64,000 nt of DNA from a virus. Positions 11,899 to 64,000 of this stretch are shown piece after piece. The stretch is from positions 34,804 to 98,803 of the IMG/VR virus record IMGVR_UViG_3300020048_000063. One strand, given 5' to 3'. Under the pieces are notes generated by a model. The model made no database searches, was not told where the DNA came from, and saw nothing but the letters and a program-made list of their open reading frames with translations. The number at the start of each line of letters is the position of its first letter. The stretch's first letter is position 1. The position numbers and the translations under genes were made by a program.

Positions 11899-11945
11899 AT
11901 ATAAATAAAAAAAGAGGTCAAAATGACCTCTTTTTTTATTTATAT
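11899..11945. terminator. Bidirectional terminator
   Basis: Long perfect inverted repeat AATAAAAAAAGAGGTCA-aaa-TGACCTCTTTTTTTATT between convergent genes. Confidence 0.85.
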
Positions 11946-12304
11946 GATTTTTCTTCAATTATATATGAATTGTGTTTTATATTTATTTTTTTCTTAATAT
12001 TAGATCTATCATTATTACATAGATATGCACCTCTAGCAGAAAGTATAAATTCAACATCAAATTCATTTCTTTCTTCTTTTAACCTAAGTGTATCTTCAAT
12101 ATGCCATATTTTTTCATTAACTGTTTTTAATTCAAAAAAATCCTCATCTTCTTTTAAGTTTAACTCATCAAAAAGTTTTTTTAATTCATTATATTCTTTT
12201 TCAATATTTTGAAGTTTATCTGTATCTTGTATATACATTTGTTTAATTTTCAGTATAGTTATCTTATCAACTAACTCTCCTATAGAAATTGGAACTAGAA
12301 TCAT
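11936..12304 (-). CDS. DUF6165-like protein
   Basis: N-terminal PISIGELVDKITILKIK and C-terminal NNDRSNIKKKIN..S.IIEEKSY signature. Confidence 0.75.
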   Translation of the reverse strand: MILVPISIGELVDKITILKIKQMYIQDTDKLQNIEKEYNELKKLFDELNLKEDEDFFELKTVNEKIWHIEDTLRLKEERNEFDVEFILSARGAYLCNNDRSNIKKKINIKHNSYIIEEKSYK

Positions 12305-12308
12305 ATTA

Positions 12309-13481
12309 TTATCTCATTAATTTTTTTACAGCATCAACAACATCTTTTGGTTGAATAGCTTTACTACAGATATAGTCCATTTTTTTAGGACAAAATAACC
12401 AATCAGAAGCATCATATAAAATATCAGGATTATTCCAGCACCCACTACACACATTAGGATTATGAACTCTAATACAATTAGATTGAAATTCATTCCATGG
12501 TTTTGTAAATCCACTTATCATAACGACTGGCGTTCCAATCGCCCATGACAACCATGCTAAACCTGAACTTAATCCTATAAACATATCAGCATGTTTAATA
12601 TCTACAATTCTTTCTATTAAAGGATGATTACCAGTTTTATCAATTACATTTTTCATTTTTGGTGCCTGATTGAAATATCCTGTTACACCAAAACTTTTAT
12701 GTTTATCTATTACAACAACTTTATAACCATTTTTAGTTAAAAAATCAAATAATCTTTCCCACCCAAAAGGATTATTCCAGTATTTAAGTTGTGCAGTAGA
12801 TTGGATAGCAACAACTACATATTTACCTCTTATTTTAGATGGTGTATCTGGAATATTTACTTTAGGTACAATTTCAACAACAGGTAAACCGAGTATTAGT
12901 GCGGCAATTGATTGTAATGATTGCTTTCTGTAATCAAAATATTTTACACAATTATCAAACTTTAAATTTTCATTGTGCCATTGTTCTGGTGCAGAAGCAC
13001 CATTAATCCGATAAAGTTCTGGACCATAATCAATTCTAAATTTTTTATCAACATCATTAACTATATTTGGATCAGAAACTGAAGTAAAAATTAAGTTTGG
13101 ATAAACTTTATCAAATAAATAATTATGTTCAGTAAAAACAACAACTTCAACATTATTAACTTTTCTATATTCTTCAACATAGGGTATCCAAGCAAGAGTA
13201 TCACCTATAGTTTTAGAACCAAATTTTATATAAACTCTATTAAATTTTTTTGCTTGTTCTCTTTGAAATAAAACTTTATCATCTAAACTAACTCTTATTA
13301 ACATATTATTAGATGATGTCTTTAATTCAGACCAAAAATTTATTTTAATATCACTTTGATATTCTATTTCATTTGTATCTAAATCTATAAAATCTACGTG
13401 ATATAGATTAGTATCATCCGATTCACCTAAAATTTCTAAATATGCTCTATCATTATTAAATATTGTAACAAAATTAACCAT
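12309..13481 (-). CDS. TibC/Aah-family (autotransporter-type) protein O-heptosyltransferase
   Basis: IGDTLAWIPY, QSTAQLKYWNNPFGW, FIGLSSGLAWLSWAIGTPVVMISGF, and Cys iron-finger-like CSGCWN...CP...CSKAI. Confidence 0.88.
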   Translation of the reverse strand: MVNFVTIFNNDRAYLEILGESDDTNLYHVDFIDLDTNEIEYQSDIKINFWSELKTSSNNMLIRVSLDDKVLFQREQAKKFNRVYIKFGSKTIGDTLAWIPYVEEYRKVNNVEVVVFTEHNYLFDKVYPNLIFTSVSDPNIVNDVDKKFRIDYGPELYRINGASAPEQWHNENLKFDNCVKYFDYRKQSLQSIAALILGLPVVEIVPKVNIPDTPSKIRGKYVVVAIQSTAQLKYWNNPFGWERLFDFLTKNGYKVVVIDKHKSFGVTGYFNQAPKMKNVIDKTGNHPLIERIVDIKHADMFIGLSSGLAWLSWAIGTPVVMISGFTKPWNEFQSNCIRVHNPNVCSGCWNNPDILYDASDWLFCPKKMDYICSKAIQPKDVVDAVKKLMR

Positions 13482-14079
13482 GCGAATTTATTTCTTTTAA
13501 TTTTTTCAATCTTATATAAGATTGAGTTTCTTGATGCTCATAATATTTCCAAATTTCTTTTAATTGTGATTCATCTTTAATTCTATGCTCATAATCATCT
13601 TTACCAATTTCAATATCAATTACATCAACATAGAAAGTCTTAGGTGTAAAAGGTAATTTTATATCTTGTTTGCTATAAATTTTTTCATTTTTTGAATTAA
13701 ATACTGAACCTGTAAAAGAAAACCCATTTTCACTTCTCCAGACTATTGCATCTATATAATATGGGTTTCCATTAATACCACATTTAAAGACAGCGGAACA
13801 ACGATTATTTTGAAATAACTCATGATCACCCACGTCAGCACAACTATTCCATTCATCTTCTGTACACATAATAGGTGCTAATGGTTCATGATTTGCTAGT
13901 TTTTCAAAATAATGAATAGCAAATGGTGCTGAACTACCAGAATGACCTTGTTTTGAAAATACTTCTAATAATTCCAATACAGATTCTTGTATCCATTTAT
14001 CTATATCATCTTCACATTCTTCAATTGGTTTATATCCTAATTTCTGAAATTCTCTTTTAGCATGTTCTAAATAACTCAT
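13474..14079 (-). CDS. Hypothetical phage protein
   Basis: 201 aa; contains QGHSGSSA; C-terminal IRLKKLKEI motif. Confidence 0.75.
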   Translation of the reverse strand: MSYLEHAKREFQKLGYKPIEECEDDIDKWIQESVLELLEVFSKQGHSGSSAPFAIHYFEKLANHEPLAPIMCTEDEWNSCADVGDHELFQNNRCSAVFKCGINGNPYYIDAIVWRSENGFSFTGSVFNSKNEKIYSKQDIKLPFTPKTFYVDVIDIEIGKDDYEHRIKDESQLKEIWKYYEHQETQSYIRLKKLKEINSHG

Positions 14080-14091
14080 ATCAACACTATT

Positions 14092-16650
14092 TTATTCACA
14101 TTTAGACCAACCACAAACTTTACAGGTTTTACAACCAGAATCATAAACTAAATCATGACCTGTCGCACCACATTCTGGACAATGCTCACCAGCAACACTT
14201 GAGTTAATATATTTTTTTATAATCCTTTTTACACCTGATTTCCAAGTACCAAAAGCTAACTCTTTATCACCATCCATTTGTAATCCATCAATTACATTAA
14301 TTACACTTGGTAAATGCATTCTATGTCTTAATAGTGCTGATACTAATTTACTATAATTCCAGAACTCACGATCAAATGCTCTATTTAATCCCTCCATTGT
14401 TACATTGTAACCATCTTTATCTTTATAACAAAAGTCATATCTACTTTTAACACCGTCATCCTTGGTTCTTAATATTTCACCCTTTTCTATACTTGGTGGT
14501 ACAAAGAATAAGTCTGCTAAACCTGTAAATAATTCGTAAGGATATTTTTCACCTTTCTCATCAGTCATTAATCCTAAAAATCCAATCCATTTTTCACCTT
14601 TATTTGTAAATCTAACAACTTCACATTCTAATCTTTTAGGTCTTGGTTTTGCATTATTTTCTTGTGATTCTGGTATAACATTTTGTGTTGTACCTTCATT
14701 TGACATAATAACACCTTGTCTTGAACCATCTCTATAAACTGTTATTCCTTTACAGCCTTCTTTCCAACCTGTTTCATAAACCTTTGAAACTATATCTTCT
14801 GTAACATTATTTGGTAAATTTACTGTTACTGATATTGAATGATCAACAAATTTTTGAATACTACCTTGCATTTTAACCTTTTCAACCCAATCAACATCAT
14901 TGGATGTTGCTTTATAATATGGTGATTTTTTTATAATCTCTTGTAATTCAGAATCCTTCATTGATTTAACTGCGATTATATCATATTTATTGACTTCTAA
15001 CCAAGTTTCAAACTTATGATGAAAGACATTATATTCTTCCCATTTTACACCTTCAGCATCAATAAAATCAACTTTTCCACTACCACCTTTATCAGTTGGA
15101 TTAATTTTTCTTCTTCTTTTATAAGAGACTAAATATACTGGTTCTATTCCTGATGTAGTTTGTGTCATTATAGATACAGAACCTGTTGGAGCGATAGTAA
15201 GTAATGCAATATTTCTTCTACCATAATTTTTTAAGTTAAAATCTAAATTAGAATCAAGACTTTTTAATCTTTGTATAAAAGGATTATTAATTTCACTATT
15301 ATAATCATAAATTGGAAATGCACCTCTTTCTTTTGCCATAATTGTTGATGACATATAAGCACCAAGTGCCAAATTTTGATGAACCTCTGTTGAAAATGCT
15401 GTTGCTTCTTTTGTACCATAAATCAAACCAAGAGCCGCTAACATATCACCTTCAGCTGTAACACCTAAACCTGTTCTACGACCTTTTTTAGTCATATCCA
15501 TAATCTTAATCCAAGTTTCTCTTTCAACTCTTTTAGTAAATTCCGTTTCAGGATCTGTATCAATCTTTTCCATAATCTTATCAATCTTTTCAATTTCAAG
15601 ATCAATAATATCATCCATAAATCTTTCAGCATAAATTACATATTCTTTAAATTTCTCCATATTAAATTTAGCATCTTTAGTAAATGGATTTTCAACAAAA
15701 CTATAAAGATTAATTGCAAGTAAACGACAAGAATCATAAGGACATAAAGTTATTTCGCCACAAGGATTCGTTGATACTGTAGTAAAACCATGCTGTTGAT
15801 AACAATCAGGTACAGATTCTTTCATAATTGTGTCCCAAAATAAAACGCCTGGTTCTGCTGATTTCCAAGCATTGTGAATAATTTTTTTCCATAGTTTTTG
15901 AGCATCAATTTCTTTACAATGAATTGGTATCTCAGAATCAATAGGATAACATTGTTTATACATATTAGCATTCATTGCCGCCTGCATAAATTCATCAGTA
16001 ACTTTAATTGAGATATTAGCACCTGTAACTTTACCTTGTTCTAATTTTGCATCTATAAAACTTTCGGAATCTGGATGTTTAATTGAAACTGTTAGCATTA
16101 ATGCACCTCTACGACCACCCTGAGCAACCTCATTTGTAGAATTTGAATATCTGTTCATAAATGGTACTATTCCAGTTGATGTTAGTGCGGAATTTTTTAC
16201 TGGTGTTCCTGCTGGACGTATATGTGATAAATCATGACCAACACCACCTCTGCGTTTCATAAGTTGAATTTGTTCTTCATCAACTTGCATAATGGAGCCA
16301 TATGAATCAGCAGGATTACCAATAACAAAACAGTTTGATAATGATACTACTTGTTTATCATTACCTATTCCTGACATTGGTGAGCCTTGTGGAATAATAT
16401 ATTCAAAGTTTTTTATCAAATCAAATATGAAATCTTCGGATAATGGATTTTCATATTTAGCTTCTATCCGGTGTAATTCTTTTGCCAGTCTCCTATGCAT
16501 ATCATCTGGTGTTTTTTCGTAGTATATCGTTTCACCGTCCTTTGTATCTTTTAATGCGTATTTATTAACCCAAACATCAGCAGCCAATGTATCTCCTTTA
16601 AAATATTTTAATGTAGCCTCATAAACTTCATCTCTTTTTAAAAAATTCAT
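14092..16650 (-). CDS. nrdJ: Class II (adenosylcobalamin-dependent) ribonucleotide reductase
   Basis: SLSNCFV, TNPCGEITL, TIAPTGS, KGITVYRDGSR, and a C-terminal Zn-type Cys cluster. Confidence 0.93.
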   Translation of the reverse strand: MNFLKRDEVYEATLKYFKGDTLAADVWVNKYALKDTKDGETIYYEKTPDDMHRRLAKELHRIEAKYENPLSEDFIFDLIKNFEYIIPQGSPMSGIGNDKQVVSLSNCFVIGNPADSYGSIMQVDEEQIQLMKRRGGVGHDLSHIRPAGTPVKNSALTSTGIVPFMNRYSNSTNEVAQGGRRGALMLTVSIKHPDSESFIDAKLEQGKVTGANISIKVTDEFMQAAMNANMYKQCYPIDSEIPIHCKEIDAQKLWKKIIHNAWKSAEPGVLFWDTIMKESVPDCYQQHGFTTVSTNPCGEITLCPYDSCRLLAINLYSFVENPFTKDAKFNMEKFKEYVIYAERFMDDIIDLEIEKIDKIMEKIDTDPETEFTKRVERETWIKIMDMTKKGRRTGLGVTAEGDMLAALGLIYGTKEATAFSTEVHQNLALGAYMSSTIMAKERGAFPIYDYNSEINNPFIQRLKSLDSNLDFNLKNYGRRNIALLTIAPTGSVSIMTQTTSGIEPVYLVSYKRRRKINPTDKGGSGKVDFIDAEGVKWEEYNVFHHKFETWLEVNKYDIIAVKSMKDSELQEIIKKSPYYKATSNDVDWVEKVKMQGSIQKFVDHSISVTVNLPNNVTEDIVSKVYETGWKEGCKGITVYRDGSRQGVIMSNEGTTQNVIPESQENNAKPRPKRLECEVVRFTNKGEKWIGFLGLMTDEKGEKYPYELFTGLADLFFVPPSIEKGEILRTKDDGVKSRYDFCYKDKDGYNVTMEGLNRAFDREFWNYSKLVSALLRHRMHLPSVINVIDGLQMDGDKELAFGTWKSGVKRIIKKYINSSVAGEHCPECGATGHDLVYDSGCKTCKVCGWSKCE

Positions 16651-16668
16651 GTTATTTTTAATTATTTT

Positions 16669-17343
16669 TTATATAAAATTGATATTGTTTAAGTTATTCA
16701 AATAACCACTTTCTTTCAATTCTATTATTATTTGTGTTGCATATTCCTTGTCTAACAGTTTAAACATGTTAAACATATTATCAGTGAAATAATATGCAAG
16801 TTCAACAAAAATTTCTGATTTTGTATATTCTTTACCTATATTATCTAAAAGCATTTTATAATAATCATTAAATGCTTGTCTATTAGGTTTTCTTCTATTA
16901 GAGGTAAAATCTAGTTCAGTCTTTTCACTTAATAGTCTATAAACATCTCTTGAAAGATTAAGTTTACTAATATAATCTTCATTGTGTTTACTTTCATACT
17001 CATAATTAGTTCCTACTTCAATTGGTAAGCCATCATTAATATTAATTTCATCTTGTATATTAAAATATTCATCTGCTTGATCTGAAGCTTCCTCTATTTT
17101 ACCTTTAAATATTGTATCTCTTTTTAATGAGTGTTTTCCTTCAAGTTTATGATTATTAGTATTAAACCTAAACATAATGTCAACATCATCTAACTCTTCC
17201 TCTTCAACTTCAGTAATCGTAGTTTCTAAATCTTCAACATCTAAACTTCCATCTTCAAGTATATCCAAATCATCTAAGTTGTCCAAGTTATCCAAACCAT
17301 CTTCTAAATTATCGTCTAAATTATCAAATTCATCTTGCTTCAT
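16669..17343 (-). CDS. Hypothetical protein with highly acidic N-terminus
   Basis: 224 aa, inside the replication operon. Confidence 0.75.
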   Translation of the reverse strand: MKQDEFDNLDDNLEDGLDNLDNLDDLDILEDGSLDVEDLETTITEVEEEELDDVDIMFRFNTNNHKLEGKHSLKRDTIFKGKIEEASDQADEYFNIQDEININDGLPIEVGTNYEYESKHNEDYISKLNLSRDVYRLLSEKTELDFTSNRRKPNRQAFNDYYKMLLDNIGKEYTKSEIFVELAYYFTDNMFNMFKLLDKEYATQIIIELKESGYLNNLNNINFI

Positions 17344-17366
17344 TATATAATATTATTTTTAAGATA

Positions 17367-18707
17367 TTATTTAACTCCAACCAAAACGTCATTCTCCATA
17401 GTTAAAAATTTAGTATTAAAATCAAATCTTACTTGTTCTTCGTGATGTTCTCCATCTCTTAATTTTAATATTTTTAATCTATAGATATTATTACGTTTCA
17501 TTTCTGGGTTACGAATAATACCCCAAACAGAATCTGCTGTATCAGCAATTGCCTTACTTTCAGGAATATCACCTAGTTTAATATCAGATGCTCCCCAAAC
17601 AGCTTTATCTGTTTGTGTTGCAGTTACTACTGCACATTCATATTTATCTGCAATCCTTCTTAAGCCTTCTGCTAAATGTTTTCCTTTTAAGTAAAGCATA
17701 TTAGTAATTTCATATCCTTTTTCAATACTCATAATATTTATATAATCTACAATCACCATTCCTACTTTAAGCCTTTTAACTTCTTCAAATTTTTTAATAT
17801 AGTTATCTATATCAGTAACAGTACAATCACTTGTATTATATTTTTTAACAAATATTTTTCCTGGTTGAGAATCAAATAAATTTCCAACAGTTGATTGTGA
17901 CTTTAAATTATTTATTCTTTGCTTCATAAAAACAGAATCTTTTGACTTTTCATCATATTCATCCGAATTTATTTTAAGTCTCATTGATCCTAATCTTTTC
18001 ATTACTTTTCTGGTTGCCATTTCTAATGTTATAACTAACACATTGGCACCATTATTTGCAGCGTTTGTTGCAATATTATGTAACCACATTGATTTACCAA
18101 CATTGGTTTCTCCCATAATTACATTTAATGTGGATTTACTCCATCCACCATTTAAAATAGAATCTATTGAAGACCATCCAGTTGGAATACTATTTTTACT
18201 TATTTGTTGTTTATGTGATTCTGGATCATCAAAATCTTCTCCTAAATCTTGATCATCATCATCAACTAAAAGTACATTACCAAACATACCTTTCAATCTT
18301 TGTGCAATATCTACAATATTATCATAATTCACTTCTTCAATTCCTCGCACCATGTCAATACCTTTTAACATATCACCTTTTAGTTGGTTTTGAATTTTCC
18401 AACCTTTAAATCTCGGTACTAACCACTCCGCACTTATATCACTATTATCAGATTGTAATAATAATTTAATTACTTTATCATTTATTTTATTATCTTGGTC
18501 AGCTAATTTGACCATTGAATAAATTTGCTGTGTACTTGGAACTGAATGACTTTCACTTTTTATATATTCTTCTCTTATTATAGAGTACACAAATTGTATA
18601 TCAGAATTTTTAAAAAAGAAAGGTTCTACTTTGGAAAATTGATCAGGATTATCCATTATATAGATAAAGTAATGTTTTTCCATGTTTGTATTCATCGTTT
18701 CAGCCAT
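17367..18707 (-). CDS. Replicative DNA helicase (DnaB/T4 gp41-like)
   Basis: GETNVGKS, ITLEM, VIVDYINIM, TATQT. Confidence 0.92.
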   Translation of the reverse strand: MAETMNTNMEKHYFIYIMDNPDQFSKVEPFFFKNSDIQFVYSIIREEYIKSESHSVPSTQQIYSMVKLADQDNKINDKVIKLLLQSDNSDISAEWLVPRFKGWKIQNQLKGDMLKGIDMVRGIEEVNYDNIVDIAQRLKGMFGNVLLVDDDDQDLGEDFDDPESHKQQISKNSIPTGWSSIDSILNGGWSKSTLNVIMGETNVGKSMWLHNIATNAANNGANVLVITLEMATRKVMKRLGSMRLKINSDEYDEKSKDSVFMKQRINNLKSQSTVGNLFDSQPGKIFVKKYNTSDCTVTDIDNYIKKFEEVKRLKVGMVIVDYINIMSIEKGYEITNMLYLKGKHLAEGLRRIADKYECAVVTATQTDKAVWGASDIKLGDIPESKAIADTADSVWGIIRNPEMKRNNIYRLKILKLRDGEHHEEQVRFDFNTKFLTMENDVLVGVK

Positions 18708-18753
18708 AAGTCTTTATTTTAGTTGTTTTTTAAAAAAAGTTTATTGAATTTGA

Positions 18754-20019
18754 TTATTCAAAAAGATTTTTATCATCATCAAGATTAAACTCATCAGATG
18801 ATAGCATATCTTTATCTTCAATCTCATTCAATCTTTCATCAACATCTTCTAATTCCTTAAGACATTCATCATAAGTTGGATATTTAAAATAATCATAGAT
18901 TATTGGCTCCATAGCTTTTAAAACTTCAGGTGTAAAAACTTTTCTATTAAAAAGTTGTTTTTCTGCTAATGTTTTATCTAAATGTTTTACAAACCAACGA
19001 TTTGATGGTTGATATGTAACTTCACCAGTATCTTTATCAATAACTTTTTTTACTTGTGCAACACCAACTTTATCAAAGTTTTCGTATGTACAAAATAAAT
19101 CTAACCCCTTATAAGGATTTATACCTTTACTATAATCAATTTCAAATTTAACTTTTTTAGGTTTAGCCAATCTATTTTTTGCAGATTTAGCTGTAATAAT
19201 TGATCCTGACCTACCAAGATCCATTTCATCTTCTTCACCAGTTTTTAATTTTGCATCACTTAAAAGCAAAATAACACTAGCAGCGTAATATAATCCTTCA
19301 CCGCCACTCATAATAGTTTGTGGAAACATATCCTGAGTTAAATAAACGTGATTAGTACAAACTAACGGAATATTTAAATATCCGAGATCATTTGTAATAA
19401 GTCTAACAAGAGATTTAATTTGTTTTGCTCTTGTCATATCTTGTTTAATATTTAATTTAAGAGTATCTTCTTTTTCTTTTTCACTTGATAACATACCAAT
19501 TGAATCAAGAAAAAATATAGTTTTAGATACATCCATACCACTATCTCTAAGTTTCTGTAACCCATCTAATATTGTCATCATGAACATTTTTATTTTTTCA
19601 ACAATATTAGTTCTAATTAACATAAATTTATTTGGATCCATAGTATCAATTCCATACATATCAAAATCAGATTTTTCAATTGAATATTCTGTATCTATCC
19701 AAACAATATTATATCCCATTTTTTGGGCATTCCTTGCAATATTCAAGGAAATAAAAGATTTACCTGTTTGTTTTGGTCCTGCAATAATTGTTATCTTATT
19801 ATTCGGAATACCTCCTTTTAATATGCTTTTTGAAAGTAGTGCATCTAAAGCATGAATTCCAGTAGAAATAAATGTTTTTTCTTTTTCAAAATCTTCAATT
19901 GAAATAATTTCTTTTTTTGAGATATTATCAATTAAACTAGATATTTTAGAAAAATCAAATTCATTAGTTTTCTTTGTGGTTACTACCTTAGCCGATGTTG
20001 GTTTGAGTGTTTTTGCCAT
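18754..20019 (-). CDS. uvsX: UvsX/RecA-like recombinase
   Basis: ISTG..ALD, GPKQTGKS, IDTE, FLDSIGML, TNHVY, MSGGEGLYYAAS, KNR. Confidence 0.9.
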   Translation of the reverse strand: MAKTLKPTSAKVVTTKKTNEFDFSKISSLIDNISKKEIISIEDFEKEKTFISTGIHALDALLSKSILKGGIPNNKITIIAGPKQTGKSFISLNIARNAQKMGYNIVWIDTEYSIEKSDFDMYGIDTMDPNKFMLIRTNIVEKIKMFMMTILDGLQKLRDSGMDVSKTIFFLDSIGMLSSEKEKEDTLKLNIKQDMTRAKQIKSLVRLITNDLGYLNIPLVCTNHVYLTQDMFPQTIMSGGEGLYYAASVILLLSDAKLKTGEEDEMDLGRSGSIITAKSAKNRLAKPKKVKFEIDYSKGINPYKGLDLFCTYENFDKVGVAQVKKVIDKDTGEVTYQPSNRWFVKHLDKTLAEKQLFNRKVFTPEVLKAMEPIIYDYFKYPTYDECLKELEDVDERLNEIEDKDMLSSDEFNLDDDKNLFE

Positions 20020-33985: not shown

Positions 33986-34624
33986 TTAACTTATATTATT
34001 TTTAAACCTCTTTTCTATAAATCCATAATCTACAAAAGCACCTTCTATATCAGAAAAAGAATTCATCTGGGTAGTCAACATAGGATTTGGCATTAAGCAT
34101 ACAAATTTATCTTGAAAATATTGAGCACAAAATACATCTAAAATATCACCGAAAACTTTTATTTCTTTTATTTTATCGTATTTATTTATAAAATGATCAT
34201 AAGCTAAATTACTATATGCTAATGAATGTGTTGCAAATGCGTTTTTTAATAAAATTAAATTAGGCTTAAACTTAATTAATTTATCATGTGTATTTGCACC
34301 AAGATAAAATATATGCCAATTTATGCCTTGTGATTGGTTTATTGCAAGTTGTAAAATTTCAGATGGATTTGGAACCAAAAATTCAAAATCATCTTCAAAA
34401 ATAAGCACATTTTTTAATTTCTTTTCTTTTGCCTTTTTTATAATTTCTAAATTTGATTGTATTAAACCTATTCTTCCATCAGTATGTTTTATGGCAGAAA
34501 ATCTTTGTACTCTTTCTAATATATCAACTTTCTTAAATTCTTCTTGTGCATGTTGCCATCTATCCACACGATGGTCTAAATTAATACAATGTATTTCATC
34601 AAAATAATCAAATGGGTTACTCAT
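33986..34624 (-). CDS. Glycosyltransferase family 25-like
   Basis: CINLDHRVDRW, RFSAI, VLIFEDD, YLG, THSLAY. Confidence 0.85.
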   Translation of the reverse strand: MSNPFDYFDEIHCINLDHRVDRWQHAQEEFKKVDILERVQRFSAIKHTDGRIGLIQSNLEIIKKAKEKKLKNVLIFEDDFEFLVPNPSEILQLAINQSQGINWHIFYLGANTHDKLIKFKPNLILLKNAFATHSLAYSNLAYDHFINKYDKIKEIKVFGDILDVFCAQYFQDKFVCLMPNPMLTTQMNSFSDIEGAFVDYGFIEKRFKNNIS

Positions 34625-48981: not shown

Positions 48982-50145
48982 TTATATTCTAACTTTTTCA
49001 CCACCAGAATCTCTAATAATATTTCTTAGTTGTTCTGTAGCACATTTATCAAAGGCAGATTTAGTCATACTTAAAACGTTATTTGAACTATCCCATTTAC
49101 ATTTTTGTTTTTCACCTTTTATAAAATTAAGAACTTTTGTAGGTTTTTCTTCAAATCCCCAAGCTAACATCTCTTCTTTCTTAGGCTCAGAAACCATACC
49201 TTCTGTTGATTTTAAATTGATTTTAAAAGTCATTGTATATACTGGTTTATCTTCTGTTCCAGTATTTTTCTTTGATCTATATTTTAAAGCAACTCTATAT
49301 TTTCTTTTCTTCAAAACATTTTCACTATATTCCATAAACAAATCTTGATCATAATCCATTTTGAAATCATTCTTATCTACTTCAAATTCTACATATTGTG
49401 GTTCTCCATTTTGATTGCCTGCAAATTTAATATTTTTACCATAAGCAAACATTTCACTTATAATTTTCTTAACTTCTTTTTGAACTTCACCTGATACTGG
49501 TGCGGCTGCTTCTTTTTTTGCTTCTAAAAAGAGTCCGAAATTTTGTATTTTTCTCATATTTTTTGTATTATTTTTACCTTCAAAAGTTGTATCTGAAGTA
49601 TAGCCTTTATATAATGATTTTTTATTAGGTATATCTGATGATGGTGTGTCATCTTTAGATGTTTCTACTCTATTTTGTCTATCATCTGACCATTTTTTTA
49701 TAGTTGACCAATATATATTACTATATGGTTTTTCTTCTCTTATATAAGGATATTCTTCCTTTAATTTTTTAAGTTCTTCTTTTATTTCATCTTCACTTAA
49801 AAGTAAAATAGATTCCATTTTATCCTTAAATTCTTGTGGTGTAATATTAAATAATTTAGAACGATATGATGATTCCATGTCAGGAGAATCCTCACCATTT
49901 ATAATAGCCTGTGTTATATCTTGCTCATGTGAATCTGCGTTTAGATATTTTTGATGCCATTTTTTAATAACTTCCCAATACGCTTTCTTATATGGTTCTT
50001 CTTCCCTAACAAAAGGATATTCTTTTTTCAATTTTGCTAATGCTCTTGACGCATTTTCTAAATCTTTATCAATAATCTTTTCTATTGAATCTAATTTAAT
50101 ATGAAAATCTTTTAGTGATAATTCACTTAATCTATCTCTTTCCAT
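48982..50145 (-). CDS. Hypothetical protein with internal duplication and internal CTS-like start
   Basis: Two LKxEYPxxREExPY...YWxxIKKW repeats; MRKIQNFGLFLEA at ATG 49557. Confidence 0.75.
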   Translation of the reverse strand: MERDRLSELSLKDFHIKLDSIEKIIDKDLENASRALAKLKKEYPFVREEEPYKKAYWEVIKKWHQKYLNADSHEQDITQAIINGEDSPDMESSYRSKLFNITPQEFKDKMESILLLSEDEIKEELKKLKEEYPYIREEKPYSNIYWSTIKKWSDDRQNRVETSKDDTPSSDIPNKKSLYKGYTSDTTFEGKNNTKNMRKIQNFGLFLEAKKEAAAPVSGEVQKEVKKIISEMFAYGKNIKFAGNQNGEPQYVEFEVDKNDFKMDYDQDLFMEYSENVLKKRKYRVALKYRSKKNTGTEDKPVYTMTFKINLKSTEGMVSEPKKEEMLAWGFEEKPTKVLNFIKGEKQKCKWDSSNNVLSMTKSAFDKCATEQLRNIIRDSGGEKVRI

Positions 50146-50165: not shown

Positions 50166-51335
50166 TTAAACTTCATAAACTTTAGTTTTATAAGGTTGTA
50201 TAATTTCTTCGTTTCTATCTGGATAATTTACTCTACTTAAAATATATCTTAGAGCATTTAATTGTCCCATCTTCTTATCATTCATATCAATAACACACCA
50301 AGGCGATTTTTTAGTTGATGTTTTAGCAAACATTTGTTCCTTATAATAAGTAAACAAATCATATTTATCAACTGCTTTAGCATCATTAGGACTAAATTTC
50401 CAATATTTAATTGGATGTGCTTTTCTTAAATTAAATCTAAATTCTTGAGTTTCTTTATCAATTGAAAACCATAATTTTATATAAATTACACCTTCATCTA
50501 TTAATTCTTTTTCAAACGGAACAACATCTTTCATAAATTGTCTATATTGTTCTTCGGTACAATATCCATTTACCGGATCATTTACTGCTCTATTATACCA
50601 AGAACGATCAAAGAATTTTAAATGACCAGTTGTAGGTAATGCTTTTACATAACGATGAAACCAATTTCTTTTTTGATATTTTGTTGGTATATCAAACCAA
50701 TCATGACTTACAATTTTTTCTGGTGTATTTTCTTCAATCAAACGAATAAAAGAACCTTTACCTGCTGAATCTCTACCATCTAATGTTACAAGTACTCTTT
50801 GATTTGTATCTTTTATCCATTCAATCATTTTTTGTAATTCAATAAATAATGCCTTATTTTCATTTTCAAAAACTTTTTTAGAAATTTTTCTTTGTTTCTT
50901 TTTAGTATCTTTCAAAGTTTTCAGTTTAGCAAATTTATCACTAAGATTGTATTTAGAATAATCGTTATTTATTTTTAGAAAAATTCTAGGTATTTCTGAT
51001 AAATACTCATCAAAATAACTTTCTGCTATATCTGGATTTAATTTTTGTTTAACCCTAAGAGTTTTGAAAAATGAATCTAATTCCAATAAAAGATATAATT
51101 CTTCACCAAATTCTTCTTTAGCCTTGATTTTTAATTCTCTAACATCTGTTCCCTTATTAAAAAGTTTTCTATATTCTCCAATAAATTTAATTACACTTTT
51201 TTTATCAACATCAGTATAATATTTAGTTTCTGGTTCAGATTCTACTTCAACTTTCGGTGTGTACGTTGTTTTTAAAGGGTATGTAGATGTGGAAGTCCAA
51301 TTTTCAAAGGTTTTTAAATAATCCATATACTTCAT
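50166..51335 (-). CDS. ppk2: Polyphosphate kinase 2 with N-terminal extension
   Basis: DGRDSAGKG, FDRSWYNRA, KLWFSI, WKFSPND; start reassigned to MKYMDYLKTFENW. Confidence 0.9.
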   Translation of the reverse strand: MKYMDYLKTFENWTSTSTYPLKTTYTPKVEVESEPETKYYTDVDKKSVIKFIGEYRKLFNKGTDVRELKIKAKEEFGEELYLLLELDSFFKTLRVKQKLNPDIAESYFDEYLSEIPRIFLKINNDYSKYNLSDKFAKLKTLKDTKKKQRKISKKVFENENKALFIELQKMIEWIKDTNQRVLVTLDGRDSAGKGSFIRLIEENTPEKIVSHDWFDIPTKYQKRNWFHRYVKALPTTGHLKFFDRSWYNRAVNDPVNGYCTEEQYRQFMKDVVPFEKELIDEGVIYIKLWFSIDKETQEFRFNLRKAHPIKYWKFSPNDAKAVDKYDLFTYYKEQMFAKTSTKKSPWCVIDMNDKKMGQLNALRYILSRVNYPDRNEEIIQPYKTKVYEV

Positions 51336-51351
51336 AAGATGAATATTAATT

Positions 51352-51367
51352 TTAATATATATATTAA
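51352..51367. promoter_or_regulatory. Palindromic bidirectional late motif TTAATATATATATTAA
   Basis: Perfect palindrome between divergent ppk2 and rpsU. Confidence 0.6.
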
Positions 51368-51417
51368 AAATTATAACCAATTTTTAAACCAAAAATAAAA
51401 ATAAAACTATACACGTT

Positions 51418-55636: not shown

Positions 55637-56671
55637 ATGAAAATTTTATTCATATTGAAAGATAGATTCTACAACAAGTCACACTCAAAATCTTATGGAC
55701 TAATAAATTCATCTAAACAAGTTGCACAATATCTTGAAAAAATTGGACATGAATATAAAATAGTACAAGTAATAGATGGTAATTCTTTAGATAAAGAAAT
55801 ATTTGAATATAAACCAGATATGGTTATTATAGAGGCTTTATGGGTAACTGGTTCTAAAATAAAAGAACTAATGGAAATACCGAGGTATAAAAATATACAA
55901 TGGGTTATTAGAGTCCATAGTGATATTGGATTTTTAAGTGCTGAAACTTTAGCAATGAAATATATAAATGATTATATCAATCTTAAAAAAGATAATTTAT
56001 TTGTTTCTTGTAATAATTTAGAATTTAATTACTTTTTATCTAAAACGATAAACTATGATTTTGTTTATTTACCAAATATTATTGAATTAGAATTTACTGA
56101 TAGTGAATTAGAAAAGAAAGAACATATTGATATTGGAAGTTTTGGTTCATTAAGAATCTTAAAAAATCAATGTTATCAAGCAATGTGTGCTATAGCAGCC
56201 GCAGACAAATTAGGTAAAAAATTAAAATTTCATGTTTCAGTTGATATTAATATAGATAAAAATGAAAATACAAATCCAGTATTAAAAAATTTAGAAGAAT
56301 TATTCTCTACAAGTGAGCATGAATTAATAAAACATTCTTGGTTGGCAAATGATGATTTTCATGAATTAATTAAAACAATGGATTTAGGATTACAACTATC
56401 ATATACAGAAAGTTTCAATATTGTAACTGCTGATTTTGTTAGACATGGTGTTCCAATAATAGTTAGCGATGCCATAAAATGGATGCCAAATTTCTTAAAA
56501 ACATCAACTGTGGATTATCATGAAACTATTCATAAAATTATAAAAGTTTACAGATTAAGAAATTGTAAATTTTTAACAAAGTGGTCACGAAGAAAGTTAA
56601 AAAAATATAATAATCTCGCAAAAAGTGATTGGTTATATTTTATGAATTATTTTGAAAACAAAAAATCCTAG
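55637..56671 (+). CDS. GT-B (GT4-like) glycosyltransferase, paralog of the adjacent gene
   Basis: QLSYTESFNIVTADFVRHGVPIIVS; start reassigned to MKILFILK after late motif 55606-55615. Confidence 0.75.
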   Translation: MKILFILKDRFYNKSHSKSYGLINSSKQVAQYLEKIGHEYKIVQVIDGNSLDKEIFEYKPDMVIIEALWVTGSKIKELMEIPRYKNIQWVIRVHSDIGFLSAETLAMKYINDYINLKKDNLFVSCNNLEFNYFLSKTINYDFVYLPNIIELEFTDSELEKKEHIDIGSFGSLRILKNQCYQAMCAIAAADKLGKKLKFHVSVDINIDKNENTNPVLKNLEELFSTSEHELIKHSWLANDDFHELIKTMDLGLQLSYTESFNIVTADFVRHGVPIIVSDAIKWMPNFLKTSTVDYHETIHKIIKVYRLRNCKFLTKWSRRKLKKYNNLAKSDWLYFMNYFENKKS

Positions 56672-57586: not shown

Positions 57587-57642
57587 GATTTTTTCTATGA
57601 TTATTGTTCTACAAAAGTATGAAAAATTCTATAATAAAAAAA

Positions 57643-57954: not shown

Positions 57955-57955
57955 C

Positions 57956-59077
57956 TTAATCCATTTTATTGGGCTGAATTGATGCTTTAACAGCCGAACT
58001 ATCTATTAATTGTTGCCTTACATATTGTGGTGGTTGATAACCCAATTTACCATTATTGTAAATAACATTCATAAATATTCCGTGAATAAAACTACCATCA
58101 TTTATAACACCATCTAACCAAAATCCATTTTCCCAATACCCATTATTAAAGGTTCCACCTGACCAAAATCCTTCAAACCAATATCCATTATTAAAATTAC
58201 CTGTTTTATGAGTTCCACCATACCATTTACCATTATACCAAACACCATTATACCAAACAGTTCTATTATGATTATCCGATACTAATGTAACACCCGATAC
58301 AATATTTAAACCTGAATGAAATTCACCATCCATAAATTGACCATTATACCAAAATACCGTAGTACCTGTATTTGTAGTACCTGTAAGAGGCATTGAACCA
58401 AATCTACTTTTAACATCTGGATTTGTTTGATTAAACTTACCATCTAACCAATAACCTAAAACAAAATCTCCACCTGTAAAATTTCCTGTCCACCACATAT
58501 ATCCTTGAAAAGTACCATTTGAGAAAACTCCATCTATCCATTCACTATTATAAAAGATTCCATTTTGAAACATTCCACCTAACCAAGCAGAATTTCTAAA
58601 TATACCATTATAAAATATACCATCTTCCCATCTAGTTTCATAATAAATTATATCAACAAAAGTTGAAGCTGACCAATTCATTAATGGTTCCGCACCAAAA
58701 TATCCATTAAAAAATTCACCTCTACGCCAAATTCCATGTAAAAATTGAGAATAAATTGGATTATCTTTCTCTAAAATTCTAATATTTCTTTGTAGTAATT
58801 GTCTTGTATCAAAACGATATGAATAAAATTTACCGTTTTTCCATTCACCATCATACCAAATTCCTGAATACCAAGTACCATCTTCCCATTCACCTGCTAT
58901 CCAATTACCTGAATACCATACTAATCCATAATCATCTTGTCCTATAATTGCATTTTCAATAATAGCATTTAATAGCCAAATATATTTTCTTTTAATTATA
59001 TCAGCGGTTAAACCATCTATCATGGTTATATTTGTTAATGTGTCACTATAATTTAGGATATCAGTAATTTTTGTCAT
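57956..59077 (-). CDS. [WF]xxGx pentapeptide-repeat protein
   Basis: Dozens of WYSGN/WIAGE/WEDGT/FYNGI units; late motif at 59082-59091. Confidence 0.8.
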   Translation of the reverse strand: MTKITDILNYSDTLTNITMIDGLTADIIKRKYIWLLNAIIENAIIGQDDYGLVWYSGNWIAGEWEDGTWYSGIWYDGEWKNGKFYSYRFDTRQLLQRNIRILEKDNPIYSQFLHGIWRRGEFFNGYFGAEPLMNWSASTFVDIIYYETRWEDGIFYNGIFRNSAWLGGMFQNGIFYNSEWIDGVFSNGTFQGYMWWTGNFTGGDFVLGYWLDGKFNQTNPDVKSRFGSMPLTGTTNTGTTVFWYNGQFMDGEFHSGLNIVSGVTLVSDNHNRTVWYNGVWYNGKWYGGTHKTGNFNNGYWFEGFWSGGTFNNGYWENGFWLDGVINDGSFIHGIFMNVIYNNGKLGYQPPQYVRQQLIDSSAVKASIQPNKMD

Positions 59078-59134
59078 GTACTATATATAAATTTTTATTT
59101 ACTGAACAGATTTATTTGTTCATTAATTTGTATT

Positions 59135-61975
59135 TTAAGCAGGAGAACCCTTTGGACCTGTGGATCCTGTTGAACCCTTATTTCCAATAGAACCTTTTGA
59201 ACCTATAGGACCTATAGCTGTTCCTTTAGAGCCTTGTGGACCTGTTGAACCGACTACTCCTGATGGACCTGTGGAACCCGTAGAACCTACAGATCTTGAT
59301 GTTGTGCCAGCTGCACCAATAGAACCAGTTGATCCGGTAGAACCTGTGGAGCCTCCAACTCCTGATGGACCTGTTGATCCTTCACCTCTACCACTATCAC
59401 CAAGTGAACCTGTAGAGCCAAGTGAGCCAATTGGACCAGTTGATCCTGCAATTGTACCGGCTGGACCGACAGATCCTGTGGAACCAACTACACCTGAACC
59501 GACACTACCTGTAGAACCAATGGAACCTGTGGAACCCGTAGAACCTTGTGGACCTGTAGACCCAGTTGAACCTATTCCACCCTGAGAACCTGTGGATCCA
59601 CTTGATCCAACAGATCCAGTTGAACCTATTGAACCTATTGAGCCTCTTGAACCAGTTGGTCCTGATGAGCCTGTGGAGCCTATTGTACCGTTTACTTGTG
59701 AACCTGTTGAACCTGTTGATCCTCTTGAACCTATTGAACCTATTACACCTTGTGGACCTATTGATCCTTGTGAACCCTGTGAACCTGTTGAACCAGTTGA
59801 TCCTGTTGATCCAGAAGAACCTTGTGCACCTATTGATCCAATAGAGCCTATCACACCTTGTGGACCTATTGATCCTTGTGAACCAATAGGTCCAATAGAA
59901 CCTGTTGATCCTGAACTACCTGTGGAGCCGATAGAACCTATTATTCCTGTTGTTCCTATTGAACCTTGTGGACCTGATGGTCCTGTTGAACCTTGGGAAC
60001 CAGTTGATCCTAATGATCCTGTGGAACCAATAGAACCGATAGAGCCTATTACTCCTGTTGTGCCTATTGAACCTTGTGGGCCTGATGGTCCTGTTGATCC
60101 TTGTGAGCCAGTTGATCCCAAGGAACCTGTGGAACCACTAGAGCCAATAGATCCAATCACACCTATTGTACCTATTGATCCCTGTGGACCTGATGGTCCT
60201 GTTGATCCTTGTGAACCAGTTGATCCTACAGATCCTGTTGAGCCAATAGAGCCAATAGAGCCTATTACTCCTGTTGTGCCTATTGAACCTTGTGGACCCG
60301 ATGGTCCTGTACTTCCTTGTGATCCAGTTGATCCTAATGATCCTGTGGAACCAATAGAACCTATTGATCCAATCACTCCTGTTGTGCCTATTGAACCTTG
60401 TGGTCCTGATGGTCCTGTACTTCCTTGCGAACCAGTTGACCCTAATGATCCTGTAGAACCACTAGAACCAATGGAACCAATCACTCCTGTTGTGCCTATT
60501 GAACCTTGTGGTCCTGATGGTCCTGTTGAACCTTTAGATCCTGTTGATCCTGTTGATCCTGTGGAACCAATGGAACCAATGGAACCTATTACTCCTGTTG
60601 TTCCTATTGAGCCTTGTGGACCTGATGGACCAGTTATACCTTGTGAACCAGTTGATCCTGTTGATCCTGTGGAGCCTATTGAACCAATAGAACCTATTAC
60701 TCCTGTTGTACCAATAGAACCTTGTGGTCCTGATGGTCCAGTCAAACCGACTGATCCTGTGGAACCCACTGACCCAGTAGAACCTATTGAACCTATTGAT
60801 CCAATTACTCCTGTTGTTCCTATTGAACCTTGTGGACCTGATGGTCCTGTTGATCCTTGTGATCCTGTTGATCCCAAAGAACCCGTAGAACCTATTGAAC
60901 CTATTGATCCAATTACTCCTGTTGTTCCTATTGAACCTTGTGGACCTGATGGTCCTGTTGATCCTTGTGATCCTGTTGATCCCAAAGAACCCGTAGAACC
61001 TATTGAACCTATTGATCCAATTACTCCTGTTGTTCCTATTGAACCTTGTGGACCTGACGGACCTGTGCTTCCTTGTGAACCAGTTGACCCTAATGATCCT
61101 GTTGAACCAATAGAACCAATAGAGCCTATTACTCCTGTTGTACCTATTGAACCTTGTGGTCCTGATGGTCCTGTACTTCCTTTTGATCCTGTAGAACCTA
61201 CTGATCCGGTGGAGCCGATAGAGCCGATAGAACCAATAACTCCTGTTGTACCTATTGAACCTTGTGGTCCTGATGGTCCTGTAGAACCTTGTGAACCAGT
61301 TGATCCTAATGATCCTGTGGAACCGCTAGAGCCAATAGAACCTATTATGCCTGTTGTACCAATAGAACCTTGTGGACCTGATGGACCCGTTATACCTTTT
61401 GATCCTGTTGATCCTGTTGATCCTGTGGATCCTATAGAACCTCTTGAACCTATAACTCCTGTTGTTCCTATTGAACCTGTGGAACCAATTGAACCAGTTG
61501 TACCTTGTGATCCAGTTGATCCAGTTGATCCTGTTGAACCTATTGAACCAATAGAACCTATTGAACCTGTTGTTCCTATTGAGCCTTGTGGTCCTGATGG
61601 ACCAGTTAAACCTTTTGATCCTGTTGCTCCAAGAGAACCTGTGGAACCAATAGAACCAATGGAGCCTATAGAACCTATGGAGCCAATTGAACCAGTTGAA
61701 CCAATTGATCCAATTGAACCAATAGAACCTAGTGATCCGGTAGATCCAATACTACCTTGTGATCCAGTTGAACCATTAACACCTGTTGATCCTTGTGGTC
61801 CATTTGGTCCTGCACCTTCTAAATATAATTTTTTTCTTATAGAACCAACGGTTACCCACAAATTAGTACCATCCCACTCAATAGAGCCATCTGGTGGTAC
61901 TGTAGGTAATAAGCCATCAGGGTTAGTAAAATTTACTACCCCGCCTGCTGGTGTGATAAGAACATCTCTTGCCAT
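59135..61975 (-). CDS. Gly-Ser-X collagen-like fibre protein
   Basis: About 890 aa of G-X-Y dominated by GST/GSI/GSQ; 36-aa higher-order unit; short N-terminal domain. Confidence 0.85.
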
Positions 61976-61978
61976 TCT

Positions 61979-64000
61979 TTATATATTTAATTTAATTATA
62001 TCTATTTGTTCTTGTTGCTTTTCTATTTGTGATTTCAATTCATTAATTTGTAGTTGTTGCTCTTTAATTGCTTGAACTAACACACCAGTTAAATGTGGAT
62101 AATCAACACCCAAATAACCATCACCAATTTCCATAACTAATTCAGGATAAACCTCTTGAAGTTCTTGAGCGATAACACCAACTTGAGGTCCGATACCATA
62201 TTTTTCATCAATGAATTCATATGATACACCACGTATTTTATCTATCTTATCTAATACTGTCTCTAACGTTACTATATTAGTTTTTAACCTTATATCTGAT
62301 CCTGAACTACCTTGTGGACCTGTTGGACCTGTAGAACCTGTTGATCCAGTTGAACCTCTTGAACCTACTGAACCTACTGAACCTGTTGAACCTTTTGCTC
62401 CTAATGGTGTTGTACCGACAGATCCTGTTGAACCTTGTGGTCCTGTACCACCACTTGAACCGGCTGAACCAATTAAGACGTCTCTACCAACTGAACCAAC
62501 TGTACCATTAGTACCAGTAGAGCCTAATGAACCATTTGGACCCGTAGAACCTTGTGGACCTAGTGAGCCTGTAGAACCAACCGAACCAAATTTAGGACTA
62601 CCAATTGATCCTGTTGAACCTATTGATCCTGCTCCAGTAGGTCCAATTGATCCAGTTGAACCTCTTGAACCAGCAGAACCCTGTAATCCTGTTGAACCTA
62701 CTGAGCCAGTTGAACCAAAAGAACCTCCAACTGTACCAGTTTTATAAAGATTAACTTCATCTACTTCAAACCAGCTTGTTGCGGGTGCACTAAGTAAATC
62801 AAATGTTAAGAATGTTAGATCAGTACCAGTCCAATAATACTCTAAATATGTTGCAGTAGCTGCTGATGGAATACTATTATCTGAATTACTACCACCAGAA
62901 CCCTGTAAAACAACCATCATAGTTTTTGATGATCTATATTTAAAGGATAATTTATAAATGAATGTACCAGCAATAGAAAGTGTTTGATAAATACGAGCAG
63001 CTGTTGTGAAAGAATCCACATATAATCTTTGAGCATTTGTTGTAAAACCATTTCCAGTTACTATACTAGGTGTAGTACTACCTGGAGAAACTTCTACCCA
63101 GCTATCAGCTAATCCATCCGCATTTGTATCTGTCCAATCTGTTGTACTATCACCACCACCATTTATTATATAATTGCTTCCTGAAGTACCACCAGTAACC
63201 ATACCAGCGTTACCTGTTGAACCAGTTGATCCGATTGAACCAATTGAACCAATTGAACCAATTAATCCTACACCACCTGTTGAACCTTGGCTACCTTGTA
63301 CACCCGTTGATCCAATTGCACCTTGAACACCTTGTGAACCTGTTGACCCTTGTGAACCTGTTGATCCTCTTGAACCAATTGATCCTATTGGACCAATTGA
63401 GCCAACATTTCCTGCTGAACCTGTTGCGCCTGTTGATCCTTGCGAACCTGTTGAACCAATAGAACCTGAACTTCCTATTGAACCTACTGATCCTGATGAA
63501 CCTACTGCACCTTGAACTAATGAACCAATTGATCCTTGTGAACCTCTTGATCCTGTTGATCCTTGTGAACCAATTGATCCAATTGAACCACCAGAACCTG
63601 TAATACCTTGTGGACCTGTTACTCCTATTAAGCCTGTTGATCCTTGTGAACCTCTTGATCCTGTTGATCCTTGTGAACCAATTGATCCAATTGAACCACC
63701 AGAACCTGTAATACCTTGTGGACCTGTTACTCCTATTAAGCCTGTTGATCCTTGTGAACCTCTTGATCCTGTTGATCCTTGTGAACCAATTGATCCAATT
63801 GAACCACCAGAACCTGTAATACCTTGTGGACCTGTTACTCCTATTAAGCCTGTTGATCCTTGTGAACCTCTTGATCCTGTTGATCCTTGTGAACCAATTG
63901 ATCCAATTGAACCACCAGAACCTGTAATACCTTGGGGACCAGTTACTCCAATCAAACCAGTTGATCCTTGGGAACCTCTTGATCCTGTTGAACCTTGTGA
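61979..64000 (-). CDS. Gly-Ser-X fibre with CBM-like domain and C-terminal peptidase S74 chaperone (5' end outside window)
   Basis: Frame open to the window edge; [34 protein letters not shown]; a non-repetitive jelly-roll-like insert. Confidence 0.88.
63531..63985 (-). repeat. 108-bp near-perfect tandem repeat
   Basis: GATCCTTGTGAACCTC recurs at 63531, 63639, 63747 and 63855; each unit encodes [36 protein letters not shown]. Confidence 0.9.

Follow-up and report, generated by a model that had tools for sequence, protein, structure and literature searches.

A putative TibC/Aah-family O-heptosyltransferase, an HldA-type kinase, and collagen-like fiber genes on a contig of a huge phage

Gene content of the window

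The DNA analyzed here, referred to as the window, is a stretch of 64,000 nucleotides at the end of one viral contig of 98.8 kb from IMG/VR (IMGVR_UViG_3300020048_000063; 28% GC, no terminal repeats). It encodes a putative protein O-heptosyltransferase of the TibC/Aah family (BAHT), a probable HldA-type heptose-7-phosphate kinase, and two collagen-like fiber proteins, which together make up a candidate system for heptosylation of the phage's own fibers. The contig is ~14% complete by CheckV and is therefore a fragment of a phage genome of several hundred kb (about 700 kb). It carries genes for a tail sheath, a baseplate hub with lysozyme, two sigma factors, ribonucleotide reductase (RNR), DnaB, and UvsX, as well as RtcB, PPK2, DnaJ, and a tRNA operon, a gene set that fits a huge myophage.

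A TibC/Aah-family transferase

The gene at 12309 to 13481 (minus strand) encodes a stand-alone protein of 390 amino acids. Its residues 27 to 388 match the profile TIGR04414 (hepto_Aah_TibC) with 269.6 bits, where the equivalog cutoff is 200, and nearly its whole length matches the TibC structure PDB 4RAP (E value, 1e-44). The residues that define TibC were taken from the structure paper, in which Asp110 is the catalytic base, Thr226, Lys230, Arg286, and Trp305 contact ADP-heptose, and the iron-finger cysteines 339, 342, 358, and 370 coordinate Fe (PMC4358343). In the alignment, the catalytic Asp is retained as D94, the ADP-heptose contacts as T229, K233, R291, and W310, and all four predicted iron-finger cysteines as C345, C348, C364, and C372. 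The Asp, Lys, Trp, and four Cys residues are invariant among ten phage homologues, and the Arg is kept in eight of the ten.

An AlphaFold2 (AF2) model of the protein (pLDDT, 86) matches 4RAP with a template modeling (TM) score of 0.70 (E value, 8e-32) over ~399 columns, and the lipopolysaccharide (LPS) heptosyltransferases WaaC and WaaF match the model at only TM ~0.5. The model contains an N-terminal eight-stranded barrel (residues 3 to 87) and a hairpin (residues 264 to 271) at the location of the TibC thumb, the tip of which is not conserved (F265/V266 in TibC, G-Y here). Judged by its sequence and predicted fold, the protein is a genuine member of the TibC/Aah family, in agreement with a preliminary description of the window that had called it a TibC/Aah-type heptosyltransferase.

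At the position that governs donor stereoselectivity, the window enzyme has Ser305, corresponding to P300 of TibC and S294 of AAH. The AAH-type Ser variant takes ADP-D,D-heptose as well as ADP-L,D-heptose (PMC4358343). Ser305 therefore predicts tolerance of ADP-D,D-heptose, in which case the HldD epimerase would not be needed.

Four nucleotides downstream of the transferase gene lies a gene for a 122-residue DUF6165 protein (11936 to 12304, minus strand; PF19662, 55.4 bits), which had likewise been recognized in the preliminary description. A DUF6165 gene is also found downstream of TibC in loci L005, L016, L018/19, and L119/120, which represent separate TibC clusters, and the protein is a possible TibC accessory. 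Its comparison with PDB returned only coiled-coil noise (influenza HA2 helices), and no literature on the family was found.

On the other side, a gene for a 201-residue protein (13474 to 14079, minus strand) overlaps the start of the transferase gene by 8 nt. The N-terminal 124 residues of its product match Pfam Tad3 with 121 bits, and among the relatives it occurs only in L017. Tad3 is an inhibitor of type I Thoeris that binds ThsB.

Relatives of the window

The lineage to which the window belongs was taken as 15 IMG/VR contigs with TibC proteins that are 51 to 67% identical. Synteny within the lineage is complete and runs from sheath, sigma factor, rhomboid, VWA/metallopeptidase, and MoxR-like genes to TibC, RNR, DnaB, and UvsX. 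The neighbors of TibC in all 15 loci correspond in the window to a rhomboid protease (6454 to 7194), a DUF2201 metallopeptidase/VWA protein (7626 to 9284), and a weakly matched MoxR-like ATPase (10627 to 11889), all on the plus strand.

A 5.4-kb contig with 27% GC (L123, JAHWHN010000051.1) contains the helicase-RNR-TibC block of the lineage at 62% identity, although binning had assigned it to "Candidatus Woesearchaeota archaeon." Since sigma-70-type factors are encoded in the window, L123 is almost certainly a phage contig misbinned into an archaeal metagenome-assembled genome (MAG). The low-GC "MAG" contigs L124, L126, L127, L130, and L167 also resemble phage DNA.

Collagen-like fiber genes and adjacent glycosyltransferase candidates

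Two collagen-like open reading frames (ORFs) lie at the end of the window. The first (59135 to 61975, minus strand; PF01391, 379 bits) encodes a fiber protein of 946 amino acids with 293 G-S-Y triplets and a 36-residue period, in which the sequence GPSGPQ recurs every 36 residues. Ser fills the X position in 67% of its triplets and Pro does so in 15%, and the Y position is Thr in 34%, Ile in 30%, and Gln in 13%. The second ORF (61979 to 64000, minus strand; PF01391, 161 bits; PF13884, 65.7 bits) encodes at least 673 residues with 130 G-X-Y triplets and a C-terminal Peptidase_S74 intramolecular chaperone domain; its N terminus is lost at the contig end, which falls within this repetitive gene and is probably an assembly break. 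Together the two ORFs hold 423 triplets, or ~1,270 residues, with Ser at X in 67 to 68%, which bears out the earlier estimate of more than 1,200 residues of Gly-Ser-X fiber between 59135 and 64000. Pro occupies X in 8 to 15% of the triplets and makes up 3 to 5% of the residues overall. With Ser and Thr contents of 29 to 37%, the two fibers are by far the most Ser/Thr-rich proteins of the window.

The S74 end of the second fiber is homologous to the S74 ends of collagen ORFs that adjoin TibC in L051, L085, L055, L020, and L088. An apparent resemblance by eye between the N terminus of the first fiber and the start of the L081 fiber was dropped, since phmmer gave no match at an E value of ≤0.01. 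A GSSGSS linker in the sheath, which had been counted with the Ser-rich sequences in the preliminary description, does occur once in the sheath gene product (2 to 3160, minus strand), at approximately residue 855; it lies outside the range assigned there to the system and is a trivial motif.

Just downstream of the fiber genes is a conserved gene for a 373-residue protein (57956 to 59077, minus strand) that serves as a syntenic anchor: homologues with 66 to 76% identity follow the collagen ORFs of the relatives G011 and G014. The collagen ORFs that these relatives carry at the same locus have the canonical G-[T/S]-[S/N] grammar, and the locus is therefore a hypervariable fiber cassette. The variant found in the window may accept the modification well or poorly.

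At a distance of 2.5 kb from the fiber genes, the gene at 55637 to 56671 (plus strand) encodes a 344-residue GT4-like glycosyltransferase (GT) of the GT-B fold. Its AF2 model (pLDDT, 89) is best matched by BshA (3MBO and 6D9T; TM, 0.72 to 0.73; E value, 1e-10), with SdgB and GtfA also among the structural matches, and some of its relatives contain PF20706. Since G011 has a 33%-identical homologue directly upstream of a 1,217-residue collagen ORF, the GT4-like enzyme of the lineage is, by gene neighborhood, a fiber-linked one.

Of the two late GT-B enzymes listed in the preliminary description, only this one stood. Neither of the two candidates for the other has support as a GT: the gene at 48982 to 50145 gave no Pfam, PHROG, or PDB signal and a poor atlas model, and the anchor gene at 57956 to 59077 gave only a weak match resembling the SV2 luminal domain. 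The 212-residue protein at 33986 to 34624 (minus strand), previously listed as a GT25, is borderline, just under threshold for PF01755 (23.3 bits versus a cutoff of 24) and with no single stretch that passes on its own; it adds nothing to the argument.

Supply of the ADP-heptose donor

The product of the gene at 28430 to 29389 (plus strand) is, by profile comparison, a probable HldA-type heptose-7-phosphate kinase. It scores 306.2 bits against TIGR02198 (rfaE_dom_I; equivalog cutoff, 345), four times the score of the runner-up family (ribokinase, 73 bits), and 120 bits against PfkB, in line with its earlier designation as a stand-alone heptose-7-phosphate kinase. Of the 15 lineage contigs, 7 encode the kinase, and these include all that extend more than 17 kb from TibC on the kinase side. 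In the other eight, the sequence on that side amounts to no more than 16.4 kb, and two of them (16.4 and 15.5 kb) nominally reach the position of the kinase. The kinase is thus likely conserved near-universally across the lineage.

Six-frame family searches found none of GmhA, GmhB, HldC, or HldD in the whole 98.8-kb contig (~14% of the genome), which extends the earlier statement that GmhA, GmhB, and the adenylyltransferase are missing from the window. Beyond the contig, the outcome was mixed. The syntenic relative G011, at 147 kb the longest, contains a stand-alone HldC (TIGR02199, 183.2 bits versus a cutoff of 181.5). This gene is separated from the TibC gene of G011 by ~79 kb and has a position that would fall before the start of the window contig. 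With HldA in the lineage and HldC in G011, both HldE half-reactions are therefore carried as separate genes. A true GmhA lies 27 kb from the TibC homologue of LR756504 (636 kb), the only searched record in which GmhA was found, and the complete 735-kb genome LR756501 contains an HldA-type kinase. GmhB and a true HldD were found in none of the searched records, so that part of the pathway must come from the host.

Some loci bring heptose genes still closer to the transferase. In L130, TibC is followed on the same strand by a GT9 gene and then by a partial HldA homologue, and extra GT9 heptosyltransferase genes adjoin TibC in L018, L119, and L130.

TibC-like genes and collagen-like fibers across phages

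An alignment-based scan of IMG/VR recovered at least 577 TibC-like stretches, and four TibC-like sequences only were found among GenBank phages, including that of Microcystis phage Mel-JY01. Our survey covered 95 loci, which formed 12 clusters at 50% identity. In 6 of the 12 clusters, which share less than 50% identity, and also in LR756501, a collagen-like ORF lies within 7 kb of TibC. Nearly all of these ORFs have Ser plus Thr contents of 29 to 55% (16% in L104), and they reach 3,326 amino acids within a locus and 4,989 amino acids in the full record. In the main cluster, 29 loci had an upstream flank of 5.2 kb or more, and a collagen ORF was found in 27 of them. The arrangement varies among loci: the collagen ORF lies 3 to 6 kb upstream of TibC in the same orientation, 1.5 kb downstream in the opposite orientation, or directly next to it across a gap of 18 nt. 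The TibC-collagen linkage has therefore survived rearrangement. Collagen ORFs also occur in all 14 long TibC-bearing records; in a cluster of 714-residue fusion proteins, they lie ~30 kb from TibC. Co-occurrence of the transferase with GSx genes across phages, which had been put forward as a check on the proposed system, was thus observed.

In most of these phages, TibC is part of a cassette with a GT4-like protein, which is either separate from TibC or fused to it, and with a GT1 protein, in many cases one that bears an FkbM methyltransferase (MT); some loci add GT9 proteins or a carbamoyltransferase. The GT4 and GT1-methyltransferase partners occur in 62 loci other than those of the window lineage. 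NodU/CmcH-type carbamoyltransferases or GT1 proteins are encoded in the TibC cassettes of L085 (8323 to 9948), L020 (6176 to 8152), and L061 (6314 to 8971), and at least the GT1 protein of L020 carries an FkbM methyltransferase domain. From their gene content, these cassettes would imply carbamoylated or methylated multisugar glycans, not single heptoses.

Among bacterial genomes, high-GC Proteobacteria have the classical pair of TibC and an AIDA-like adhesin, and low-GC "MAG" contigs resemble the phage type. A contig assigned to the Acidiferrobacterales has two small Ser-rich collagen-like ORFs ~1 kb from TibC. In a quick maximum-likelihood tree, the AIDA-associated enzymes form one clade (SH-aLRT, 99) that includes no phage enzyme except that of L021, and the window lineage forms a clade of its own (support, 100). 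No AIDA-like ORF was found in the window or in the lineage loci. In L021 (IMGVR_UViG_3300028048_000170; GC, 53%), the gene for a 683-residue AIDA-repeat adhesin immediately precedes that for a canonical TibC, which has a TibC_1st domain, and the enzyme groups with those of Lentisphaerota and Verrucomicrobiota; this locus may be an adhesin system carried by a prophage, or it may be bacterial DNA that was included in the viral collection.

Proposed function and alternative explanations

We consider O-heptosylation of the phage's own collagen-like fibers by its BAHT enzyme the best explanation of these observations, with a probability of about 0.55. The enzyme would move heptose from ADP-heptose to the hydroxyls of serines in the collagen-like tail fibers, in the cytoplasm of the infected cell and before or during fiber assembly. 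The phage HldA kinase would raise the donor supply, as would an HldC adenylyltransferase like that of the syntenic relative, with the host providing the sedoheptulose-7-phosphate isomerase and the 7-phosphatase. The GT4-like enzyme beside the fiber locus might add or extend a second sugar, and a glycan coat could stabilize the fibers, protect them from proteases, mask them, or promote adhesion. Which protein is modified, with which sugar, and to what end is inferred here. The preliminary description had already suggested that the phage boosts ADP-heptose and glycosylates its own fibers. That suggestion gains from the TibC-collagen co-occurrence, the HldC and GmhA genes, the L130 array, and Ser305, and it loses from the position of TibC outside the fiber module and from window fibers whose repeat grammar differs from that of TibC-adjacent fibers.

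Several observations weigh against fiber heptosylation in this lineage. The transferase gene closes a compact operon of UvsX, DnaB, and RNR genes and lies 46 kb away from the fiber genes; in the flanks covered (≤10 kb), none of the 15 lineage loci has a collagen ORF near TibC. The GT4 and GT1-methyltransferase cassette partners were not found in the 98.8-kb contig by phmmer and profile searches. The fibers of the window follow a G-S-[T/I/Q] grammar with Ser at Y in only 9% of triplets, whereas TibC-adjacent fibers elsewhere are proline-free G-[T/S]-S repeats with Ser at Y in 51 to 100%. The reported TibC sites are at Ser rather than Thr and have the contexts QN-S-GG and NT-S-AA, which resemble G-T-S-G more closely than G-S-T-G. 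The long branch of the lineage (0.86) could reflect a changed acceptor. On the donor side, the kinase scores below the equivalog cutoff of 345 bits, GmhA and GmhB were not found in the lineage records searched (this contig, G011, and G001, all fragments), and HldC, like GmhA, was not found in the complete genome LR756501. Finally, the argument that TibC and collagen genes co-occur beyond chance is a rough one, drawn from geometry within TibC-bearing records.

A first alternative is that the enzyme acts on phage fibers of the canonical G-[T/S]-S kind encoded elsewhere in the genome, while the two ORFs of the window receive no sugar or receive it from the GT4-like enzyme encoded nearby, whose family adjoins collagen ORFs in the lineage. 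TibC modifies Ser ahead of small residues, and both the TibC-adjacent fibers and those of G011 and G014 are of the G-[T/S]-[S/N] type; because the 147 kb of G011 contain three collagen ORFs, more fibers are likely encoded beyond the window contig. We nevertheless regard this explanation as rather unlikely: the ORFs of the window sit at the same locus as the canonical fibers of its relatives, they retain ~36 x-S-G sites and ~290 G-S-x serines, and no third collagen ORF was seen in the 98.8-kb contig. It is distinctly unlikely that the enzyme has been repurposed in this lineage, with early or middle expression, to modify a host protein (an adhesin, an envelope protein, or a defense protein) or a nonstructural phage protein. 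The contig has no AIDA-type or other obvious repeat acceptor, all other phage clades point to collagen fibers, and the lineage retains large collagen ORFs. The conservation of TibC inside the replication operon, its overlap with the Tad3-like gene in two members, the lack of its usual GT partners, and the long branch all speak for such a change, as does the fact that classical members of the family modify bacterial surface adhesins (PMC4358343), but an enzyme made early would still be around at the time of fiber synthesis. A related scenario, also unlikely, is that the enzyme moved into the early replication operon, lost its partner GTs, was provided with its own HldA and HldC, and gained a new acceptor (the G-S-Y fiber or a nonfiber protein), so that its product would be a takeover or antidefense modification and not a virion coat.

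Two further explanations separate the heptose genes from the fibers altogether. One is that the genes are unconnected, the kinase altering LPS-core or heptose metabolism of the host (e.g., for superinfection exclusion) and the transferase and fibers merely sharing a genome. Distances of 15 to 46 kb between transferase, kinase, and fibers would allow this, huge phages hold many unrelated metabolic genes (the present contig has PPK2, Prs-like, NUDIX, and RtcB genes), and most other TibC-bearing phages are without HldA or HldC. We find it improbable, however, as ADP-heptose is the only known donor of the TibC family and members of the lineage keep TibC together with HldA and, where the sequence extends far enough, with HldC; because of this joint conservation and the partial HldA in the TibC gene array of L130, kinase and transferase are unlikely to be independent. 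The other is that the kinase, HldC, and the GTs serve DNA hypermodification by placing heptose on hydroxymethylated bases. Phage gene clusters that add mono- and diheptose to 5-hydroxymethylcytosine (5hmC) provide a precedent, but the DNA heptosyltransferases known from them are T4 β-GT-like and not TibC-like (bioRxiv 10.1101/2023.12.21.572611). While TibC stands amid replication and nucleotide-metabolism genes and the model of the GT4-like enzyme resembles T4 α-glucosyltransferase (TM ~0.6), the window enzyme retains the protein-specific modules of TibC (β-barrel, thumb, and iron finger), and searches of the contig, G011, and G001 found neither a ThyA-like hydroxymethylase nor a TET enzyme. 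Of these searches, the one for TET/JBP detected nothing in control genomes either and carries no weight. DNA heptosylation thus seems very improbable, and O-heptosylation of the collagen-like fibers remains the reading that we prefer.

Comparison with known systems

To our knowledge, O-heptosylation of proteins is known only from the autotransporter adhesins of bacteria, in which it is a virulence trait. The window enzyme shares with the TibC-TibA and Aah-AIDA-I systems of E. coli (4RAP and 4RB4; PMC4358343) its family, by curated hidden Markov model and by fold, including the catalytic Asp, the ADP-heptose contacts, the cysteines of the 1Fe-0S iron finger, the N-terminal β-barrel, and the β-hairpin. 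The expected chemistry is also alike, with many serines being O-heptosylated in the cytoplasm on a long, repetitive, rod-like protein. Assembly into a ring-shaped dodecamer is a further trait of the BAHT family. In contrast, the window enzyme is phage encoded, lies outside the autotransporter clade, and has no autotransporter or AIDA repeats nearby; its thumb tip is not kept, and its presumed acceptor is a collagen-like triple helix rather than a β-helix.

A closer parallel is the phage cassette of TibC, GT4, and GT1/FkbM proteins found in uncultured phages, LR756501, and Microcystis phage Mel-JY01 beside giant proline-free G-[T/S]-S collagen ORFs. The window lineage belongs, broadly, to the same nonautotransporter branch, has collagen fibers with S74 domains, and includes relatives with G-[T/S]-[S/N] fibers. 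It differs in that its TibC stands alone in a replication operon far from the fibers and without the GT4 and GT1-MT partners, in that it adds HldA and HldC, and in the G-S-[T/I/Q] grammar and 3 to 5% proline of the window fibers.

The kinase of the lineage and the adenylyltransferase of G011 match the two domains of HldE (TIGR02198 and TIGR02199), and they are separate proteins, as in the HldA-plus-HldC pathway of Gram-negative bacteria. Unlike that pathway, the genes of the lineage are virus encoded, GmhA, GmhB, and HldD were not found with them, and their product presumably serves the glycosylation of protein and not of LPS.

Glycosylated surface repeats are known from BclA, the O-glycosylated collagen-like surface fiber of the Bacillus anthracis exosporium (PMC6222408), and from the O-glycosylated fibrils of Mimivirus (PMC9614988), and glycosylation of mycobacteriophage capsids and tails is cited in PMC11256854. 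All of these are surface fibers or virion proteins with Ser/Thr-rich repeats that are O-glycosylated by dedicated, coencoded GTs, but with enzymes of other families and with other sugars (rhamnose and anthrose, or hexoses); none of them is known to involve a BAHT enzyme or ADP-heptose. In the literature searched, we found no description of a phage TibC homologue or of ADP-heptose-dependent virion glycosylation. What the window adds is the evidence for donor supply (HldA plus HldC and the AAH-type Ser305) in a lineage whose TibC lies off the fiber module and whose fiber grammar has changed.

If fiber heptosylation is correct, virion glycosylation of this kind would be common among environmental phages, as the enzyme is encoded on at least 577 viral contigs, and it would influence how the phages adsorb, which hosts they infect, how stable their particles are, and how grazers or immune systems recognize them. 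A second class of acceptor, different in structure, would also become available for the study of how a ring-shaped GT decorates a rod-like repeat protein. To settle which sugar is attached, the present lineage is the best suited, because it encodes donor-making enzymes as well. E. coli makes ADP-heptose natively.

Additional observations

The region from 14092 to 20019 contains the replication genes upstream of TibC. Homologues of DnaB, RNR, or UvsX are split into two hits or lie in much longer ORFs in L003, L005, L006, L007, L011, L013, and L015 to L017; RNR ORFs of ~3.5 kb, compared with 2.56 kb in the window, are an example. This suggests inteins or homing-endonuclease insertions in the relatives that have no counterpart in the copies of the window.

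A TTATATAA-like motif is found 20 to 45 nt 5' of many gene starts, including those at 28430, 55637, 34624, 16650, 13481, 20629, and 59077. In this 28% GC genome, the motif (TATATAA-like) precedes the kinase, GT4-like, TibC, RNR, and structural genes alike, and it may mark a class of phage promoters. Given its presence at all kinds of genes and the low-GC background, its use as evidence for the timing of expression was dropped.

Several further enzymes encoded by the contig have possible functions in nucleotide or NAD+ salvage or against depletion, namely, a Prs-like ribose-phosphate pyrophosphokinase (L001, 7268 to 8284, plus strand), a NUDIX hydrolase (window, 39758 to 40405, plus strand), and a PPK2 polyphosphate kinase (window, 50166 to 51380, minus strand). 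The Prs-like enzyme of the contig recalls phage NAD+ reconstitution pathways. A 461-residue protein with DUF2828 and DUF7788 domains (L001, 10769 to 12154, minus strand) is TROVE/Ro60-like.

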